Positions 20,973 to 40,609 of a stretch of DNA of 44,853 nt are shown here, piece by piece. Both the position numbers and the translations under genes were made by a program. The DNA is from a virus (Duplodnaviria; Heunggongvirae; Uroviricota; Caudoviricetes). Position 1 is the first letter of the stretch, and every line of letters starts with the position of its first letter. The stretch lies in IMG/VR virus record IMGVR_UViG_3300045988_031537; one strand, given 5' to 3'. The notes under the pieces are model-generated. The model saw only the letters and a program-made list of their open reading frames with translations. It was not told the DNA's origin and searched no databases.

Positions 20973-23213
20973 CTACTCCAAATCCTCCTCTGTCACCACC
21001 AGCATTTCATTCGGTTCGTATATTGTCTTCGGTCTTAATCTGTCGCCCATCTTTTCCGGTATCCTGTATGTGCCCGGTATAACTTCACCGTTAACATCAC
21101 ATCCAAGCATCAACTCACCGTCTTTCAGCATCTTCTCGAGATGGTGGTTGGTGATAGCGTGGTCGCCAGAGTTCGCCACTATCTGCCGTTGGGTAAAACC
21201 GCGTCCGGTGTCGTCGGCCTGCTGCAGGTCTTCCAGCGCGGCGAGTATTGATTCCTTACGCCCTTCATCCTTCCCGCGTTTTACAGCATTCTTTACGTTT
21301 TCTTTACCTTCTTTCGTCAGCCCTTCTTCCCGCTCTTTCTCCTCGTCAGTTTTGAACGGCTCGAAGCCCCACGGCATCAGCACAAGTGCCTTATGTGGTT
21401 CTGGCAGGTCGAGGTTTACGATTGTGCCGTATTCCTCTGTGCTACCCAGGAACTCAACAGCACGGTACTCTTTCGGCGGTGGCGCTTCGCGGAACTGTAC
21501 CGACTCCAGCACCATGCCAACCGTTTTCTGTTGGGGCCCGTGCTTAAATTTAGAGTGGTATACGTTTATCTGACGGTCGGTCGCGCGTTCAATTGTCAGT
21601 TCCACGTCGACGCCAGCATACAGCGCACCACTGCCGCGGGCTTTCTTTCCACCTTTCGGCGTATGGTGGACAACGCCTACTGCGGCTTTAGTCACGTCAC
21701 GTACTTCTTTCAGGATGGCAATGACTTTACCCATGCCGATTGCCGTCGATGAACTGTTCTCGTCGAACTTATCAATCGTCAAAGCCAGGGTCTGGTTTAG
21801 GGTGTCGAAGGCAACCATGCCGATGGGTTCGTCACCCGCAGTTTCACGCATCAACTTAATAAGGCTTTTCAGTTTTCCGACTTCGCCCATGTCGATGACA
21901 TGTACATAATCTTTACCTTCCTCACCATATTTAGCCGCTAGTGCGTCAATACGTGTGCGTGTAGCCGCGCCACCCTCACCGTCGATATAGAAGTGATGGC
22001 AACGCTGGGTGTCCGCCCCGGCGAACCGGTATCCGGCGGCGCTCAGGTACATCATCCCCAGCGTATAGAATGATTTGTACGTGCCGGATTCCCCGACAAT
22101 ATCCCAGATGCAATCTGACGGCATATACCCTTCTACGACGAAATCAGCCTTTACCGGTTCCGGTAGCTCGTCCTCCTCGGGGTCCTCGTCGTCTTCCAGG
22201 TCGTCGAGGCTGCATGAAACAGATTCACGTGCGCCCCAGCCGATAGCCTCAGCGACTTCACTGAACGGGAGACCAGTCGCATCACACGCATATTTCCACA
22301 CCTCTTTCGGCGACATGCCTTCGGTTGCCGTAATGTCAGTGTCGTGGATCATGGTTACGTTCGGCGCTTCGTAGCCCTCGCGCGGGAAGCACAGCAGGAA
22401 GTCGTCCGGGCGCGGCGTAGGGTCGCTGTAATTTTCTGCATGTTCCGGCGTAGCTGGCATCTTAAGGCCGCGGGGCGTCATAACACCGCCGTACTCAAAC
22501 GCCAGCGCCTCAAACGCATCAGTAAACGCGGTACGCAGTTCTTCTGGTATCTGGTAGTCAGATGCGCTGCTCACCTCGTAATCCGGGATGCCTTCCAGTA
22601 ACTCTTCCGGGTCAATCAGGTCGTTTCGGCGCGACCAGATAACGGTAGAGCCAACCGGCGGCAGGTACATAGGCTGCGACAGAGTGAAACCGCTGCGGTC
22701 CGCGCCCATGCCTTTGAAGAAGTGTTCCAGCAATCCATGGCGAACACGGATGATGTCTCCACCTTCAACCGGGCGGCCCAGCGGCATGACGACGCGAAAG
22801 CGTGGTGACTCATCGGTATGGGATGCCGTGGTGTAGAGGCACATAGCCAGGCGGCTGCGCTTAACCAGGCGCACAGCTTCCTGATACTCTTCCGGTGTTG
22901 CACCGTCGAAGTCCAGATAAGCGAGCGACGATTTGCTTACAGACGCGTCACAGCGATAGAAGAAGCCTTTACGCGCCCGCTTAAAGTCTCCTGTTTCCGG
23001 GTCTTTTACGGTGCTGTGTGTAGAGTCGCACGCAGCGGTGATATACCCGGGCGCGGTCTTAGGGTTAATCCCATCACGAACGGCATCGAGTGGCTGGATT
23101 AGCTCTTTCAGGTCGTCCAGTGTTGCCGTGTGGGTGGTTCTGACGTTTATATCCTTTTTCTCTGCCGGCGCGTTGCGACGAGACCACGAGTAGGATAAAA
23201 TTACATCGGACAT
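20973..23213 (-). CDS. Primase-polymerase / RecA-like helicase replication protein
   Basis: N-terminal prim-pol-like region (LDFDG) and C-terminal P-loop GESGTYKS. Confidence 0.7.
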   Translation of the reverse strand: MSDVILSYSWSRRNAPAEKKDINVRTTHTATLDDLKELIQPLDAVRDGINPKTAPGYITAACDSTHSTVKDPETGDFKRARKGFFYRCDASVSKSSLAYLDFDGATPEEYQEAVRLVKRSRLAMCLYTTASHTDESPRFRVVMPLGRPVEGGDIIRVRHGLLEHFFKGMGADRSGFTLSQPMYLPPVGSTVIWSRRNDLIDPEELLEGIPDYEVSSASDYQIPEELRTAFTDAFEALAFEYGGVMTPRGLKMPATPEHAENYSDPTPRPDDFLLCFPREGYEAPNVTMIHDTDITATEGMSPKEVWKYACDATGLPFSEVAEAIGWGARESVSCSLDDLEDDEDPEEDELPEPVKADFVVEGYMPSDCIWDIVGESGTYKSFYTLGMMYLSAAGYRFAGADTQRCHHFYIDGEGGAATRTRIDALAAKYGEEGKDYVHVIDMGEVGKLKSLIKLMRETAGDEPIGMVAFDTLNQTLALTIDKFDENSSSTAIGMGKVIAILKEVRDVTKAAVGVVHHTPKGGKKARGSGALYAGVDVELTIERATDRQINVYHSKFKHGPQQKTVGMVLESVQFREAPPPKEYRAVEFLGSTEEYGTIVNLDLPEPHKALVLMPWGFEPFKTDEEKEREEGLTKEGKENVKNAVKRGKDEGRKESILAALEDLQQADDTGRGFTQRQIVANSGDHAITNHHLEKMLKDGELMLGCDVNGEVIPGTYRIPEKMGDRLRPKTIYEPNEMLVVTEEDLE

Positions 23214-23270
23214 GTTGTATTTCCTTCAGCAAGTAATTTGGCCTCGGCGCTCTAACGTCGGGGCTTTCTT

Positions 23271-23504
23271 TTATTCCAGGTCTTCTAAAGTAGCAGCCAT
23301 TCCGCGAACTTCAGCAACAGCACCATATTTCCCACCAACGTTTTTCACGACACCCGATTTAACCAGTACCTTCAACGACCCTTCAATAATGGCGGAACTA
23401 TAGTACTTAAAATAACTACGGCGCAAGTCCATAACGCTGCACGACCCTTTTTTGCGGGTTAACGAAACGACCGCCGTAAATACGCGTGACTGGAACTCGG
23501 TCAT
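23271..23504 (-). CDS. Hypothetical protein
   Basis: 77-aa ORF between the HTH gene and the primase. Confidence 0.4.
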   Translation of the reverse strand: MTEFQSRVFTAVVSLTRKKGSCSVMDLRRSYFKYYSSAIIEGSLKVLVKSGVVKNVGGKYGAVAEVRGMAATLEDLE

Positions 23505-23671
23505 TTAACGTTCTCCTTAATCCACGCTTCCACTTTCTCTGGGTCAAACGTACCGGGCTGGCGGCGGCCCATAATGCGGATACAACAATCCGGGAACTTC
23601 CCACTCTTTAACCAGTTATTAAGCGTGCGGCGAGTAACCCCAATACGCTCAGCTACCTCATTCTGTGTCAT
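23501..23671 (-). CDS. Small HTH DNA-binding protein (AlpA/excisionase-like)
   Basis: ATG at 23671 with GAGGG RBS; MTQNEVAERIGVTRRTLNNWLKSGKFP. Confidence 0.5.
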   Translation of the reverse strand: MTQNEVAERIGVTRRTLNNWLKSGKFPDCCIRIMGRRQPGTFDPEKVEAWIKENVK

Positions 23672-23703
23672 TCTCAAACCCTCATTATCAGTCAACGAAA
23701 CCA

Positions 23704-23776
23704 AGTATACATTGCGAATAATGGGAAATCAAACATAATCGCACCTATTGACATTATGGAAATCTTCGTTTAAGGT
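23704..23776. promoter_or_regulatory. Divergent early promoter pair: leftward TTGATT-N17-TATACT, rightward TTGACA-N17-TAAGGT
   Basis: Hexamers with 17-bp spacing on both strands, between the leftward HTH gene and a noncoding stretch. Confidence 0.4.
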
Positions 23777-24011
23777 GCTTCTATATCTTAGTTACTTTTA
23801 TTCTTGTTCACCTTGTAAGAATGTTTAACCCGTGCGTCAAGCAAAGGGTTAAACACAGGCTTACTGAACATTAGAATTATTGTAACTTTCCTTCCTTAGT
23901 ATCTCCGGTTGCCCTGGGCAAGCTCTATTCTCATCGGCAGCATATCTCTTAAGTATCTGATTTTCTTAATGTGCCGTAGATTCGCAACCGTAAAAATGTA
24001 ACGATTAGTGG

Positions 24012-24035
24012 GCAGGCTTAGGGCCTGCCCTTTAG
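24012..24035 (+). terminator. Rho-independent terminator-like hairpin
   Basis: GGGCAGGC-TTAGG-GCCTGCCC followed by TTT. Confidence 0.5.
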
Positions 24036-24102
24036 TTACCAAGTAATAAGAATAAAGGCACAACCCTACCTGAAGAATCACAACGGCAACGTAACTATTT
24101 TC

Positions 24103-24131
24103 TTGCACACCCCAACATAATAGGATACTAT
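24103..24131 (+). promoter_or_regulatory. Sigma70-like promoter, TTGCAC-N17-TACTAT
   Basis: Consensus-like hexamers; about 30 bp nearly identical to the promoter at 1439-1467. Confidence 0.5.
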
Positions 24132-24165
24132 TCACTTATCGAAACGAGACAGATGAGTGAGGGTT

Positions 24166-24357
24166 ATGTTTAGGAAGGGTCAGTTGGTGAAAACGATGTA
24201 CGGTAGCTTAGGTATTATTGAAAAGAAATCGACAGTGTACCGAAGTTCTTATGTCGTTAGCTTACTCAGGGAGCACGGGTTAAGTTCCACGGCGTATTAC
24301 CGAGAGTATGAAATGAAGCTCATAGGCAACAATTTTAAATTCAAAGGGGCGAAGTGA
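24166..24357 (+). CDS. Hypothetical early protein
   Basis: ATG at 24166 after GAGGG. Confidence 0.45.
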   Translation: MFRKGQLVKTMYGSLGIIEKKSTVYRSSYVVSLLREHGLSSTAYYREYEMKLIGNNFKFKGAK

Positions 24358-24611
24358 TGGAAGAATTAATTTGTATTGAGTCTAAAGCAGAAATGGGCGG
24401 TTGGTTTATAAAAGGCAACGAGTATTCGTTGAAAGTACACTACGACGGTCGTCTCTACGTTTTAGACGAGGAAGGTGATGAGTGGGATTTAGAGCAATCA
24501 CATGGTGAAGCCTTTACCGTGAATGTCCTGGGCACACCAGCGGTAACATTCAGAACGGCATCGAATCATGATGCTCGTGCCGACGACTCTGAGGGAGGTT
24601 GCCGTGAATAA
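24357..24611 (+). CDS. Hypothetical early protein
   Basis: ORF start overlaps the previous stop. Confidence 0.45.
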   Translation: MEELICIESKAEMGGWFIKGNEYSLKVHYDGRLYVLDEEGDEWDLEQSHGEAFTVNVLGTPAVTFRTASNHDARADDSEGGCRE

Positions 24612-27849: not shown

Positions 27850-28342
27850 TGAACTTAGCCGTGACTATGTTCGTAGCGTTTTAGATTACAACCCTGACAC
27901 GGGGTTATTCACGTGGCTTAAGACGGTTAGTTCAAAAGCCCCTAAAGGGACTGTGCCAGACGGGAGAGACCCGGACGGGTATAAAGTAATCATGCTCAAA
28001 GGTAAATACCTACGGCAACACAGGCTTGCATGGTTCTATATAACAGGAGAGTGGCCCAGCGGGCAGATAGACCACAGGAACGGGGTAAGAGACGATAATA
28101 GGTTTTGTAACCTGAGAGAATGTGACTCGCAGGACAACAACCGCAACCGTGGGTTATCGCGCAACAACACCAGCGGAGTATCAGGCGTCCATAGACAGCA
28201 AGGGAAATGGATGGTGAGAATCCGTTTGCAAAAAGGTGTGCGCAAGTTTTTCGGTTACTTCGATGACCTTGAGTTCGCTGAGTTAGTAGCTAGCGAAGCC
28301 CGAGATAAATACCACAAGGAGTTCTCTTTATGCGCTCGATGA
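27827..28342 (+). CDS. HNH-AP2 homing endonuclease
   Basis: GTG start after GGAGGA; IDHRNGVRDDNRFCNLRECDSQDN HNH motif plus AP2-like GVSGVHRQQGKWMVRIRLQKGVRKFFGYFD. Confidence 0.65.
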   Translation: MSRNISDNELSRDYVRSVLDYNPDTGLFTWLKTVSSKAPKGTVPDGRDPDGYKVIMLKGKYLRQHRLAWFYITGEWPSGQIDHRNGVRDDNRFCNLRECDSQDNNRNRGLSRNNTSGVSGVHRQQGKWMVRIRLQKGVRKFFGYFDDLEFAELVASEARDKYHKEFSLCAR

Positions 28343-35535: not shown

Positions 35536-36105
35536 ATGGGAATTGTTTTTGGTGTGGGTATTAACGATGTTTCACCAATAAGTTGCGGAGGGGTGCATAT
35601 AGCGTCCTACGCCGTATGGAAGAACATGTTAAAGAGGTGCTACGACAAGAAATGGCAGCAAAGAAACAGAACTTATATAGGTTGCCGCGTGTCGGACGAT
35701 TGGTTGGTGTTCAGTAATTTCAAGGTCTGGTTTGATGATTTTTATGTACCTGGGTGGCAGATAGATAAGGATTTACTTAACCCGGGAAATAAGGTTTACG
35801 ATGCTTCTAACTGTGTTTTCATCCCTAAATCCCTCAATACTTTCCTAACAGCCCACGACGCTCTTCGAGGCGAACACCCACTCGGCGTACATTTCCATAA
35901 ACAAAAGAAAAGATTCATCGCTCAAGTATCCGTGGATGGCGTATCTGAACAAATAGGCGCTTACGAAACCGCTCAAGAGGCACACGTAGCATGGTTTCAT
36001 AGAAAAATTGAATTAGCATATGAATACAAAGGTCTTTGCGATAGCATAGACCCACGCCTTTTCGAAGGCGTCTTACGTAAGATTAACTCAATGAAAGAGG
36101 TTTAG
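35536..36105 (+). CDS. HNH-AP2-like homing endonuclease, possibly degenerate
   Basis: AP2-like GVHFHKQKKRFIAQVSVDGVSEQIGAYETAQEAHVAW; HNH-like GWQIDKDLLNPGNKVYDASNCVFIPKSLN with Lys where His is expected; preceded by a 12-bp-stem hairpin at 35468-35517. Confidence 0.5.
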   Translation: MGIVFGVGINDVSPISCGGVHIASYAVWKNMLKRCYDKKWQQRNRTYIGCRVSDDWLVFSNFKVWFDDFYVPGWQIDKDLLNPGNKVYDASNCVFIPKSLNTFLTAHDALRGEHPLGVHFHKQKKRFIAQVSVDGVSEQIGAYETAQEAHVAWFHRKIELAYEYKGLCDSIDPRLFEGVLRKINSMKEV

Positions 36106-37493: not shown

Positions 37494-37880
37494 ATGAATC
37501 TTAAAGCAACTGTCGTAGCCGGAGCATGTTTCGTCGTCCTAGCCTACGCACACGGCATCTATCAATACCGCAGCGGCTGGGGTGAAGGCCGTGCTAATCT
37601 CGTTTCGCAGCAACAGCAGAAAGCACAGGCTGAGCTGACGAAGAAAACACAACGGCAGCAGCAGGATGAATCAAAGGCCGCCGCCGCTGACAACGAAGGC
37701 AAGACGAAATCAGAGGTGATTACCCGTGAAGTCGTTAAGTACATTAAAACGCCTGGCCGCAGCGTGTGCACTTTCGACGATGCTCGCGTCCTGCTCAAGT
37801 CCCACGCCGTTGCCAACGCCAATTCCATCCCCGGATACGACGATGATGCAGCCGCCGTGCAAACTGGCACCGCCAAGTAG
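37494..37880 (+). CDS. i-spanin (Rz-like)
   Basis: N-terminal transmembrane segment, Gln-rich coiled coil, embedded o-spanin ORF. Confidence 0.6.
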   Translation: MNLKATVVAGACFVVLAYAHGIYQYRSGWGEGRANLVSQQQQKAQAELTKKTQRQQQDESKAAAADNEGKTKSEVITREVVKYIKTPGRSVCTFDDARVLLKSHAVANANSIPGYDDDAAAVQTGTAK

Positions 37881-37989
37881 CGACGCTGACGAGGATTTAG
37901 CTATCGACGTTCAGAACGCCGAATGTGTACGGCAACTGAGACTGAAAGTGTTCATGTTGCAGGATTACGTGAGGAATATTCTGGAATAG
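37726..37989 (+). CDS. o-spanin (Rz1-like lipoprotein), overlapping and extending past the Rz gene
   Basis: GTG start after GAGGTG; lipobox LASC; proline-rich mature region. Confidence 0.55.
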   Translation: MKSLSTLKRLAAACALSTMLASCSSPTPLPTPIPSPDTTMMQPPCKLAPPSSDADEDLAIDVQNAECVRQLRLKVFMLQDYVRNILE

Positions 37990-38071: not shown

Positions 38072-38773
38072 ATGAATCGTTTTTTACACTATCCGTTCCA
38101 GGAAGAAGCTGGGGCAGAAGATAAATCTGGCGGTGGCGACGCTCCAAAAATGTTCACAGCCGAAGAAGTTCAGGCGCTGATTGAGAAAGAAGTTGCCGGA
38201 CTTAAGGCCAATCAGGAAGCATTGCTGGCGGAGAAGAAAGAAGCCGCCCGTAAAGCAAAAGAGGCCGAAGAGGAACGTCAGCGCGCGCACCAGGAGGCGC
38301 TAAAAGCCGCCGGTAAGATGGACGAGTTCGAAAAGACGATTCGTAGCCAGTATGACCCGGTGTTAGCCGAGAAAGATGGTCGCATCTCCAAAATGGCTGA
38401 GCGCATCCTCGGCAGCGAACGTAAAGCGGTGTTAGGCTCTTTCGCAGGTGACTTTATTACCCCGGAAGCAGTAGACATTCTTGCTCCGTTCGTTAAGACT
38501 GAGTTCGAAGGTGATGATGTGGTTACTAAGTTTGTTGGGCCAGACGGCGGTGTAATCACGACTGACCCTGAACAGTTCCGCAAATACCTGCGCGAACACA
38601 AAGCGTTTTCGCATTTGATTAAAGCAAATGCAGCTTCCGGCGGCGGGGCTTCCGGTGGCAAAGGCGGCGGGGCCGCACCAGCGTTTAAAGACATGAGTGA
38701 AGCGGAGCGTTTAGCTCTGTATAAATCGAACCCTGCCGAATTTGAACGGCAACTTAAAGCCCTGAGGAAATAA
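38072..38773 (+). CDS. Scaffolding protein
   Basis: Highly charged, predicted helical (...EALLAEKKEAARKAKEAEEERQRAHQEALKAAG...); directly upstream of the major capsid gene. Confidence 0.6.
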   Translation: MNRFLHYPFQEEAGAEDKSGGGDAPKMFTAEEVQALIEKEVAGLKANQEALLAEKKEAARKAKEAEEERQRAHQEALKAAGKMDEFEKTIRSQYDPVLAEKDGRISKMAERILGSERKAVLGSFAGDFITPEAVDILAPFVKTEFEGDDVVTKFVGPDGGVITTDPEQFRKYLREHKAFSHLIKANAASGGGASGGKGGGAAPAFKDMSEAERLALYKSNPAEFERQLKALRK

Positions 38774-38775
38774 TA

Positions 38776-39825
38776 ATGGCAATTACCACTATCGGCGATA
38801 TCGTAACTGGCAACATCCCGGTCCTGGCGTCTTATATGACCGAGGACCCGGTAGAAAAAACCGCGTTCTTCCAGTCCGGTATTCTTACCCCTACTCCGTA
38901 CGCCGCCGAGATTGCCCGCGGCCCGTCCAACGTCGCTAACATTCCTTTCTGGAAAGCGATTGATACTTCTATCGAGCCTAACTACTCGAACGACGTATAC
39001 CAGGACATCGCTACCCCGCGTAACGTGCAAACCGGCGAGATGATGGCGCGCGTTGCATACCTGAACGAAGGTTTTGGCCAGGCGGACCTGACTGTCGAAC
39101 TGACCAGCCAGAACCCGCTGCAATCCGTAGCGTCCCGTCTGGATAACTTCTGGCAGCGCCAGGCGCAACGCCGTCTGATCGCTACCGCGCTCGGTCTGTA
39201 CAATGACAACGTAGCCGCTACCGACGCATACCACGAGCAGAATGACATGGTTGTAGACGTGTCTGCTACTCTGGGCTTCGACGCAGGTGCGTTCATCGAC
39301 GCCACCCAGACTATGGGTGATGCGCTGATGGGCAACGGCGGAGAAGTGCTGGGTGCTATCGCGATGCACAGCTTCGTTTATGCGCAGGCCCGTAAGCAGC
39401 AGCTTATTGACTTCATCAAAGACGCCGACAACGACACACTGTTCGCCACCTACCAGGGTTACCGCGTGATTGTTGACGACAGCATGACCGTAGTCAACAC
39501 CGGCTCTAGCCGTAAGTTCATCTCCATTATCTTCGGTAACGGCGCTATCGGTTACGGTGAAGGTTCTCCGTCCAACCCGTTGGAATACGAGCGCGAAGCG
39601 TCTCGCGGCAACGGCGGTGGGGTAGAAACCCTGTGGACCCGTAAGACCTGGTTGCTGCACCCACTGGGCTACAGCTTTACCAGCGCAGTAATCACCGGTA
39701 ACGGCACCGAGACCGTCGCACGTTCTGCTTCATGGCAGGACCTGGCGAACGCCTCCAACTGGAACCGCGTTGTTGAGCGTAAGCATGTACCGATTGCCTT
39801 CCTGGTAACTGGTGTCGGTGCTTAA
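38776..39825 (+). CDS. Major capsid protein
   Basis: 349 aa after the scaffold gene, followed by a strong terminator. Confidence 0.75.
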   Translation: MAITTIGDIVTGNIPVLASYMTEDPVEKTAFFQSGILTPTPYAAEIARGPSNVANIPFWKAIDTSIEPNYSNDVYQDIATPRNVQTGEMMARVAYLNEGFGQADLTVELTSQNPLQSVASRLDNFWQRQAQRRLIATALGLYNDNVAATDAYHEQNDMVVDVSATLGFDAGAFIDATQTMGDALMGNGGEVLGAIAMHSFVYAQARKQQLIDFIKDADNDTLFATYQGYRVIVDDSMTVVNTGSSRKFISIIFGNGAIGYGEGSPSNPLEYEREASRGNGGGVETLWTRKTWLLHPLGYSFTSAVITGNGTETVARSASWQDLANASNWNRVVERKHVPIAFLVTGVGA

Positions 39826-39840
39826 GGTTAAGCTATAATC

Positions 39841-39866
39841 GAGAGGGACTTCGGTCCCTCTTTTCA
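39841..39866 (+). terminator. Rho-independent terminator
   Basis: GAGAGGGAC-TTCG-GTCCCTCTT followed by TTTCATTT. Confidence 0.6.
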
Positions 39867-39884
39867 TTTACTAAGAGGTAAATT

Positions 39885-40256
39885 ATGGCTAAGACTGGAA
39901 AAGGCTTGCCGCGCAGCCTTCAGAATGTCGACTTCGGCGACCTGGACATCAGCGTAGGCTAGGGAGAAGTAACAGGTAAACCGGCGGTAATCGCGGCGGG
40001 GGCGACCCAAGAGGCGGCACGTACCGCTATTGGTGCAGGTACGTCAAGCCTTGCGATCGGAACAACTTCGACTACCGCAATGGCGGGAAATAAGTTCGTT
40101 CAGGGTGCTGCGGTTACAGACGTCGGCACGCAGACCGTTACGGGTGAAGAGGCTGCCGCGGTTGCTACGTCCGCACAGACTGCGGTTAACGCGGTAGGCA
40201 CTCAACTTAACGCCTTACTGGCACAACTTCGTGCCGCTAAAATCATCGCATCCTGA
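39885..40256 (+). CDS. Ala/Thr/Gly-rich protein (possible head decoration or fibre) interrupted by an in-frame TAG at 39960-39962
   Basis: ATG 39885 with AAGAGG RBS; 25 codons, TAG, then 98 further in-frame codons with no internal start and no RBS before ATG 40080. Confidence 0.4.
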
Positions 40257-40267
40257 GGAGCTTAAAA

Positions 40268-40609
40268 ATGGTTGATGTAATTAAACGTCGTATTACTGGT
40301 GTGTCCGCCGATACCGTGGGTGCTAAAATCGATATGGCAAATATCTCGCCAGCGTCTTTCTCTTCCGCGCTGGCGGCTACTACCTCCGTTACCACAGGTG
40401 GAACCATGACACTGACCGTAACCGTAACGGGCGGTCTGGAGCCGTATTCCTACCAGTGGTACAAGAACAACAACGCTATCGCCGGGGCGAACGCTGTTCC
40501 CTATGTGAAGGCGTCCACTACTACCGCAGATTCCGGTACGTATAAAGTGGTTGTTCGCGATGTGTATGGTAATATTATCTCCAGCAACACTGTAGCAACT
40601 GTGTCTTAA
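40268..40609 (+). CDS. Ig-like domain protein
   Basis: PYSYQWYKNNNAIAGA...SGTYKVVVRD. Confidence 0.5.
   Translation: MVDVIKRRITGVSADTVGAKIDMANISPASFSSALAATTSVTTGGTMTLTVTVTGGLEPYSYQWYKNNNAIAGANAVPYVKASTTTADSGTYKVVVRDVYGNIISSNTVATVS

Follow-up and report, generated by a model that had tools for sequence, protein, structure and literature searches.

The closest described counterpart of the locus studied here is gp8.5 (PF11133; PDB 3QC7, 6QVK), the head fiber of the Bacillus phage phi29, whose gene lies directly after that of the major capsid protein. The head fibers of phi29 are dispensable, with no effect on stability or infectivity (review PMC7602432). In the 44,853-nucleotide stretch of viral DNA analyzed here, which we call the window, the gene directly after the major capsid gene likewise specifies a fiber-like product, rich in Ala, Thr, and Gly and with a C-terminal helix. 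Its close homologs pass the PF11133 gathering score over the C-terminal fiber tip, and the dispensability of the phi29 fiber is matched by natural null alleles of the window-type gene. The two systems differ in that phi29 is a Bacillus podophage, whereas the window belongs to an E. coli siphophage, and in that the window protein comprises 123 aa as compared with the 277 positions of the Pfam model and falls below the Pfam threshold even after its interrupted codon is restored. A second parallel is offered by the hoc and soc null mutants of T4, in which loss of an accessory capsid-surface protein leaves infectious phage; the neighboring gene in the window, at 40268-40609, is itself Hoc-like. 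Unlike those cases, the fiber gene has no sequence relationship to Hoc or Soc, and its dispensability is read from natural nulls rather than from the constructed mutants available for T4.

The lesion that interrupts the fiber gene resembles those of classical phage amber mutants, in that a G-to-A change in a Trp codon creates UAG. Classical ambers were obtained in essential genes by laboratory selection on suppressor hosts (supE/supF), whereas the window amber lies in a non-essential gene of a metagenome-derived genome, where it would persist without a suppressor. An in-frame stop followed by a protein-like extension is also the arrangement seen in Q-beta A1, MuLV gag-pol, and TAG-recoded gut phages. 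Unlike those systems, however, the window locus has a stop that is not conserved, lacks both a stimulatory context or structure and a suppressor tRNA, and shows no genome-wide pattern. We consider it very probable that the locus carries a natural null allele of recent origin, created by the change of TGG to TAG at 39961, in a phi29-like head-fiber gene that is normally maintained but dispensable. The features of the locus, in window coordinates, are as follows.

38776-39825, + strand: major capsid protein gene (ORF of 349 aa, annotated at the same position in relatives), directly upstream of the fiber gene
39841-39862, + strand: strong, terminator-like GC-rich hairpin with a T-run; a 9-pair stem, GAGAGGGAC-TTCG-GTCCCTCTT, then TTCATTT
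39873-39878, + strand: Shine-Dalgarno sequence AAGAGG, invariant in all aligned relatives and in 21 IMG/VR loci
39885-40256, + strand: head-fiber (virion structural protein) gene of 123 codons and a stop, with the interruption at codon 26
39885-39950, + strand: N-terminal module MAKTGKGLPRSLQNVDFGDLDI, codons 1-22, common to two otherwise unrelated allele types
39960-39962, + strand: amber codon TAG, a G-to-A change at 39961 relative to the TGG (Trp26) of all intact relatives
39963-40253, + strand: fiber module, codons 27-123, downstream of the stop and presumably untranslated
39998-40002, + strand: run of five G residues (G5), intact in the window, with one G missing and the frame shifted in three other lineages
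40080-40256, + strand: residual 58-aa ORF, starting at the first ATG past the TAG, with no Shine-Dalgarno sequence; a gene-caller by-product
40268-40609, + strand: gene for an Ig-like (Hoc-like) capsid decoration protein, directly downstream of the fiber gene and with an RBS of its own (Ig_3 and Ig_2 above cutoff; phrog_4069, E 3.3e-47)

The reading frame opens with ATG at 39885-39887 and runs for 25 sense codons (MAKTGKGLPRSLQNVDFGDLDISVG) to TAG at 39960-39962, after which 97 sense codons follow in the same frame before TGA at 40254-40256. The first-pass annotation of this DNA had described an ORF with a good RBS that ends after 25 codons at an in-frame TAG, and both the sequence and its translation confirm that description. 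Some of its particulars require amendment. The Shine-Dalgarno sequence AAGAGG is present, but the spacer is 6 nt (taaatt) rather than 7 nt; the frame does continue after the TAG, but the 98 codons reported for the continuation include the terminal TGA; and there is indeed no internal RBS, although the internal start that was said to be missing exists as an in-frame ATG at 40080, which lacks a Shine-Dalgarno sequence. The 58-aa residual ORF that begins at this ATG has been called as a gene in nine public contigs, each of which has a lesion upstream of it. Re-initiation past the TAG was considered as a functional route and rejected, since the first in-frame start is this ATG and the product would lack the N-terminal module.

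Megablast searches with the locus and with the whole right half of the window matched Kagunavirus-like E. coli siphophages of the Guernseyvirinae at ~90-97% identity, and no GenBank record identical to the window region was found by megablast. The order of the locus is major capsid gene, hairpin, fiber gene, Ig-like decoration gene, and then the head-tail connector genes, and the placement of the fiber gene between the major capsid and Ig-like genes is the same in the window, in four GenBank phages, and in nine metagenome contigs. The Ig-like gene is preceded by the RBS GAGGAG ahead of its ATG at 40268. The hairpin occupies the interval between the 3′ side of the major capsid gene and the RBS of the fiber gene and is invariant in the four aligned relatives; the annotations of phages Snoke and Schulenburg have a terminator at the corresponding position. 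The hairpin probably acts as a partial terminator, by which expression of the decoration and connector genes would be lowered relative to that of the capsid protein.

Phages ORH_001, fFiEco02, and phiWAO78-1 have an uninterrupted 372-nt ORF at the homologous place, annotated variously as a virion structural protein, a head fiber protein, or a tail fiber protein. Restoring Trp at codon 26 of the window gene yields a protein that matches phrog_1954 (virion structural protein, head and packaging) over residues 2-123 with an E value of 2.8e-46 and phrog_5711 (head fiber protein) with an E value of 9e-7. A protein database search returned 454 homologs, the closest of which has 123 aa and 98% identity, and the names given to these homologs include “head fiber protein.” Judged by its full-length profile match and conserved position, 39885-40256 is the Guernseyvirinae head-fiber gene (PHROG 1954). 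In place of the uninterrupted frame of this family, the window copy has TAG for TGG at codon 26, and it is a pseudogene or null allele of the PHROG 1954 family.

The likeness to the phi29 fiber is confined to one end of the protein. The Trp-restored window protein has no PF11133 match at E<=1 in Pfam; the gathering cutoff of 24.6 bits is exceeded by the homologs P0039 (72% identical; 35.8 bits) and P0042 (67% identical; 33.5 bits), and the homolog from phage Jersey scores 15 bits. The matches of P0039 and P0042 involve only profile positions 211-277 of 277 and the C-terminal ~80 residues of these proteins. Because the match is restricted to the end of the profile, the fiber protein appears related to the distal portion of the phi29 fiber, without its beta-tulip base. 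A family profile searched against the PDB gave a weak match to the crystal structure of the phi29 fiber (3qc7, E 0.098), and a phmmer search of the PDB with the Trp-restored protein gave a chance match only.

The same family profile also weakly matched PDB entry 9d82_J (“B2 Dec Gp45”), a solved capsid decoration protein of 99 aa, with an E value of 0.018, and the C-terminal motif of the fiber, NALLAQLRAAKIIAS, resembles the C-terminus of 9d82, LNALITKLKAAGIMA. This likeness may reflect a trimerization tip shared among small phage decoration proteins. An AF2 monomer model, built with the 98%-identical P0003 as the first row, has a mean pLDDT of 62.5; a helix at residues 88-117 is its sole confident element, and the N-terminal half has no strands and is of low confidence. 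In the homolog P0099, the repeat W-x-x-[IV]-T-G-K-P-A-V-I...A-A-R-T-A-I-G-A is present three times, an arrangement that is consistent with a repeat fiber but does not prove one. The Guernseyvirinae were described in 2026 as structurally uncharacterized (PMC13243795), with no capsid structure for the group, and a literature search for Kagunavirus together with head fiber found nothing.

Residues 1-22 form a separate module. Across 21 IMG/VR loci (L006-L026, at about 1501-1800), the sequence MAKTGKGLPRSLQNVDFGDxDI heads two unrelated bodies. Type A, the form found in the window, has 123 aa and a W..TGKP fiber body, and type B has 99 aa and a body that reads PVTPATTSVVGGVKK... and contains a C-terminal helix. 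Type B is the commoner of the two in IMG/VR, with 17 of the 21 loci to the four of type A. Both allele types are headed by an identical RBS, and the point at which they are swapped lies three codons ahead of the amber codon. In Klebsiella-phage homologs, the type A fiber body, beginning at the Trp, follows a different N-terminus. The head-fiber gene is a mosaic, and residues 1-22 are a putative capsid anchor.

The codon that has been lost is conserved. The four close relatives that we aligned have TGG at codon 26 and otherwise align with the window gene at 98% identity. The IMG/VR loci of type A all have Trp at this codon (4/4), and the protein of one of them, L006, is 100% identical to the Trp-restored window protein. 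Most members of the wider family have Trp here, phage Jersey and one other have Tyr, and Trp26 opens the conserved motif W-x-x-[IV]-T-G-K-P. Two synonymous changes and the TAG are the sole DNA differences between the window gene and the intact allele of L006. Given TGG in every intact relative and a restored protein identical to that of L006, the lesion is a single G-to-A transition at 39961. Deamination at a Dcm hotspot (CCWGG) was considered as the cause of this transition and rejected, as GGCTGGGGA has no CCWGG on either strand.

Pairwise dN/dS values between intact alleles range from 0.05 to 0.37, which indicates that the fiber gene is normally under purifying selection. Since the remainder of the window gene shows no decay, the nonsense lesion appears to be recent. 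The unchanged sequence 3′ of the TAG is equally compatible with continued selection acting through low-level readthrough.

From these data, we infer that translation terminates at the TAG and that the virion lacks fibers. In the present phage lineage, TGG (Trp26) became the amber codon TAG through the G-to-A change at 39961. In an ordinary E. coli host, as expected from standard E. coli translation, RF1 would then terminate at the UAG, and the released product would be a 25-residue peptide consisting of the anchor module and three further residues. The fiber part, codons 27-123, would be absent save for trace amounts from near-cognate readthrough. The downstream Ig-like gene would still be translated from its own RBS; that the untranslated stretch of ~300 nt might bring about some Rho-dependent polarity is speculation. 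The resulting virion would be fiber-less yet infectious, and the null allele would persist because head fibers of this kind are accessory.

The window is not the only genome in which this gene is disrupted. One G has been lost from the G5 run in fEg-Eco19 (L027), in ERZ22666005 (L032), and in an HMPC19 scaffold of 44,730 nt (L036), and these three losses stand in three different sequence backgrounds. These losses may mark a slippage hot spot or a site of the contingency type, and homopolymer sequencing error may account for some of them. In three ERR141168xx runs (L028, L034, and L035), a G has been lost at codon 24, giving ATC AGC TAG. The fEg-Eco19 record annotates only the 58-aa remnant of the gene, and fEg-Eco19 is a cultured lytic phage (PMC9038960); further null alleles reside in full-length metagenomic genomes. 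On the strength of the frameshifted copy in this cultured phage and the independent null alleles in other lineages, we infer that the head fiber is dispensable for infectivity. Together with TGG in the homologs and the assignment to a head-fiber family, these independent nulls bear out one of the explanations offered in the first-pass annotation, namely a nonsense mutation in a dispensable decoration or fiber gene.

The fiber gene is intact and under purifying selection in most relatives, so loss of the fiber is probably costly for fitness in nature. A tblastn search of GenBank phages gave 63 records with the type A gene and a visible split in just two of them, the record of fEg-Eco19 and its RefSeq copy; this search covered residues 1-80, with residues 81-123 removed by low-complexity filtering, and would not flag a nonsense codon. 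Variants of other kinds were also encountered. P0036 (107 aa) and P0087 (77 aa) have in-frame deletions inside the fiber body, and in P0040 and P0093 the N-terminal part of the fiber is fused to the C-terminus of the downstream Ig-like protein. These four come from short Logan contigs and may be minor or real variants or assembly artifacts.

Full-length fiber would still be made if the amber codon were functionally suppressed, either in a suppressor-tRNA host (supE/supF-like) or through a useful level of near-cognate readthrough, and we regard this as quite unlikely. The sequence past the TAG is intact and protein-identical to a functional allele, as suppression would lead one to expect, but recent mutation accounts equally well for undecayed sequence. 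Purifying selection on the intact alleles similarly suggests that complete loss might come at a cost, yet the frameshift nulls in relatives, including cultured fEg-Eco19, show that the fiber is not needed. Natural E. coli rarely have suppressor alleles, and readthrough of an unsuppressed UAG is ~0.1-1% or less; both points weigh against suppression. The window, moreover, has no tRNA, and a suppressor would extend eight other TAG-ended genes. Propagation on a laboratory amber-suppressor host, which had been raised in the first-pass annotation, is improbable as well, as the matching contigs are metagenome assemblies with no laboratory-propagated isolates among them.

A different reading of the same lesions is that truncation is itself selected, with an “anchor-only” allele advantageous in some environments and with the lesions and G5 slippage serving as a fiber on/off switch. 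The codon 24 −1 lesion, the codon 26 TAG, and the G5 run (codons 38-40) all lie between the anchor and the fiber body, the in-frame deletion and fusion variants retain the anchor, and a homopolymer run is a plausible contingency site. We nevertheless find selected truncation decidedly unlikely. It draws on only three lesion sites in ~5 lineages, and because look-up of the 58-aa residual ORF could detect lesions in codons 1-65 only, the chance under uniform placement of lesions that all three sites would fall past codon 22 is ~(43/65)^3 = 0.29, which is not significant. Most relatives have an intact gene, and some of the G-run deletions could be sequencing errors. Extended to Kagunavirus-like gut coliphages as a group, a recurrent and perhaps adaptive switch-off of the head fiber by lesions just past the 22-residue anchor is quite unlikely. 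If it did occur, virions would keep the anchor peptide and lose the exposed fiber, which could provide an escape from antibody, mucus, or host-surface interaction in the gut.

That the true base at 39961 is G and that the TAG is a sequencing or assembly error is highly improbable, although a single-base difference from relatives is the form such an error would take. The TAG is present in five ENA assemblies (loci L029, L030, L031, L033, and L038) that match the window DNA with 100% identity across 1.2-2.8 kb, and these were produced with different assemblers and naming schemes. Four of them (ERZ1689157, ERZ1690027, ERZ1690229, and ERZ1689913) contribute contigs of 1.2-2.8 kb at ~2x coverage and were found by exact look-up of the 58-aa residual ORF, which returned nine public contigs. 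The fifth, ERZ28663344, was found by look-up of the neighboring Ig-like protein and contributes a 44,858-nt scaffold, ZELL14-1_SAMEA2467018_METAG-scaffold_399, that matches the window without a difference across 2.3 kb, TAG included. The four low-coverage assemblies may be separate runs of a single sample, so the replication rules out an error in a single assembly but does not show spread between hosts. The window also has no other in-frame stop, which argues against a generally error-prone assembly. The base-call error proposed in the first-pass annotation is therefore very unlikely.

Recoding was examined across the genome as well as at the codon. Among ~65 ORH_001 CDS with a counterpart in the window, the fiber gene alone has an in-frame stop; this survey used annotated ORH_001 CDS, as taking all stop-to-stop ORFs gave hundreds of spurious stops. 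TAG is the terminator of 8 of the 58 other window genes, whereas stop-reassigned phages have many TAG-interrupted genes and avoid TAG as a terminator. ARAGORN found no tRNA in the 44,853-nt window, and hence no phage-encoded suppressor tRNA. The RNA past the TAG is no more stably folded than shuffled sequences (z = 0.38), Rfam gave no significant match to it (the single match had E = 0.77), and a search for the exact pattern of the TAG allele gave no match in IMG/VR or in JGI metagenome contigs. In homologs, the stop is replaced by TGG (Trp) or, in two relatives, by Tyr. We reject programmed readthrough, which the first-pass annotation had listed, and code reassignment, because the stop is not conserved and no supporting machinery is present, be it a stimulatory RNA structure, an Rfam element, a suppressor tRNA, or a second interrupted gene. 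A bare in-frame TAG followed by protein-like sequence is all that programmed readthrough, TAG reassignment, or two abutting genes can call upon, and with the last of these contradicted by homologs that form one continuous ORF (the earlier suggestion that two separate genes might meet here does not hold) and by the lack of any start or RBS after the TAG until the Shine-Dalgarno-less ATG 40 codons on, all three are barely conceivable.

Under the preferred reading of a recent null allele, the locus should be annotated as a disrupted head-fiber gene (a pseudogene or null allele); two genes, a 58-aa “hypothetical protein,” and evidence of recoding would each be a wrong annotation. A natural amber null in an accessory capsid-fiber gene is a new instance of a well-known type of event, akin to fiber-less phi29 and to the hoc and soc nulls of T4; as a natural case from a metagenome, it contributes to the evidence that head fibers of the phi29-like kind are accessory. 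The amber, frameshift, and deletion alleles taken together suggest that fiber-less Guernseyvirinae variants arise repeatedly. The TAG and TGG alleles provide a ready isogenic contrast for head-fiber function in a structurally uncharacterized phage group.

Several observations concern other parts of the window. A tblastn search with the HNH endonucleases of ORH_001 gave two matches in the window, at 27875-28318 and 35545-36096, with only ~39% identity; one sits in the holin/endolysin interval and the other in the head-morphogenesis/Hoc-like gene interval. These matches look like free-standing homing-endonuclease insertions at sites unlike those in ORH_001.

A 460-aa ORF at 38278-39660 on the − strand overlaps the scaffold and major capsid genes in antisense orientation. 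Its ORH_001 counterpart, an antisense ORF of 551 aa (22885-24540), is annotated as a CDS and the capsid gene of ORH_001 is left unannotated, which looks like a mis-annotation. The stops in the window copy relative to the ORH_001 copy argue that the 460-aa ORF is not a gene.

A partly embedded spanin pair lies at 37494-37989. It consists of an Rz-like gene at 37494-37880 and a lipoprotein-like ORF at 37726-37989 that overlaps it in a different frame; the Rz1-like gene annotated in ORH_001 is shorter and corresponds to 37846-37986 of the window.
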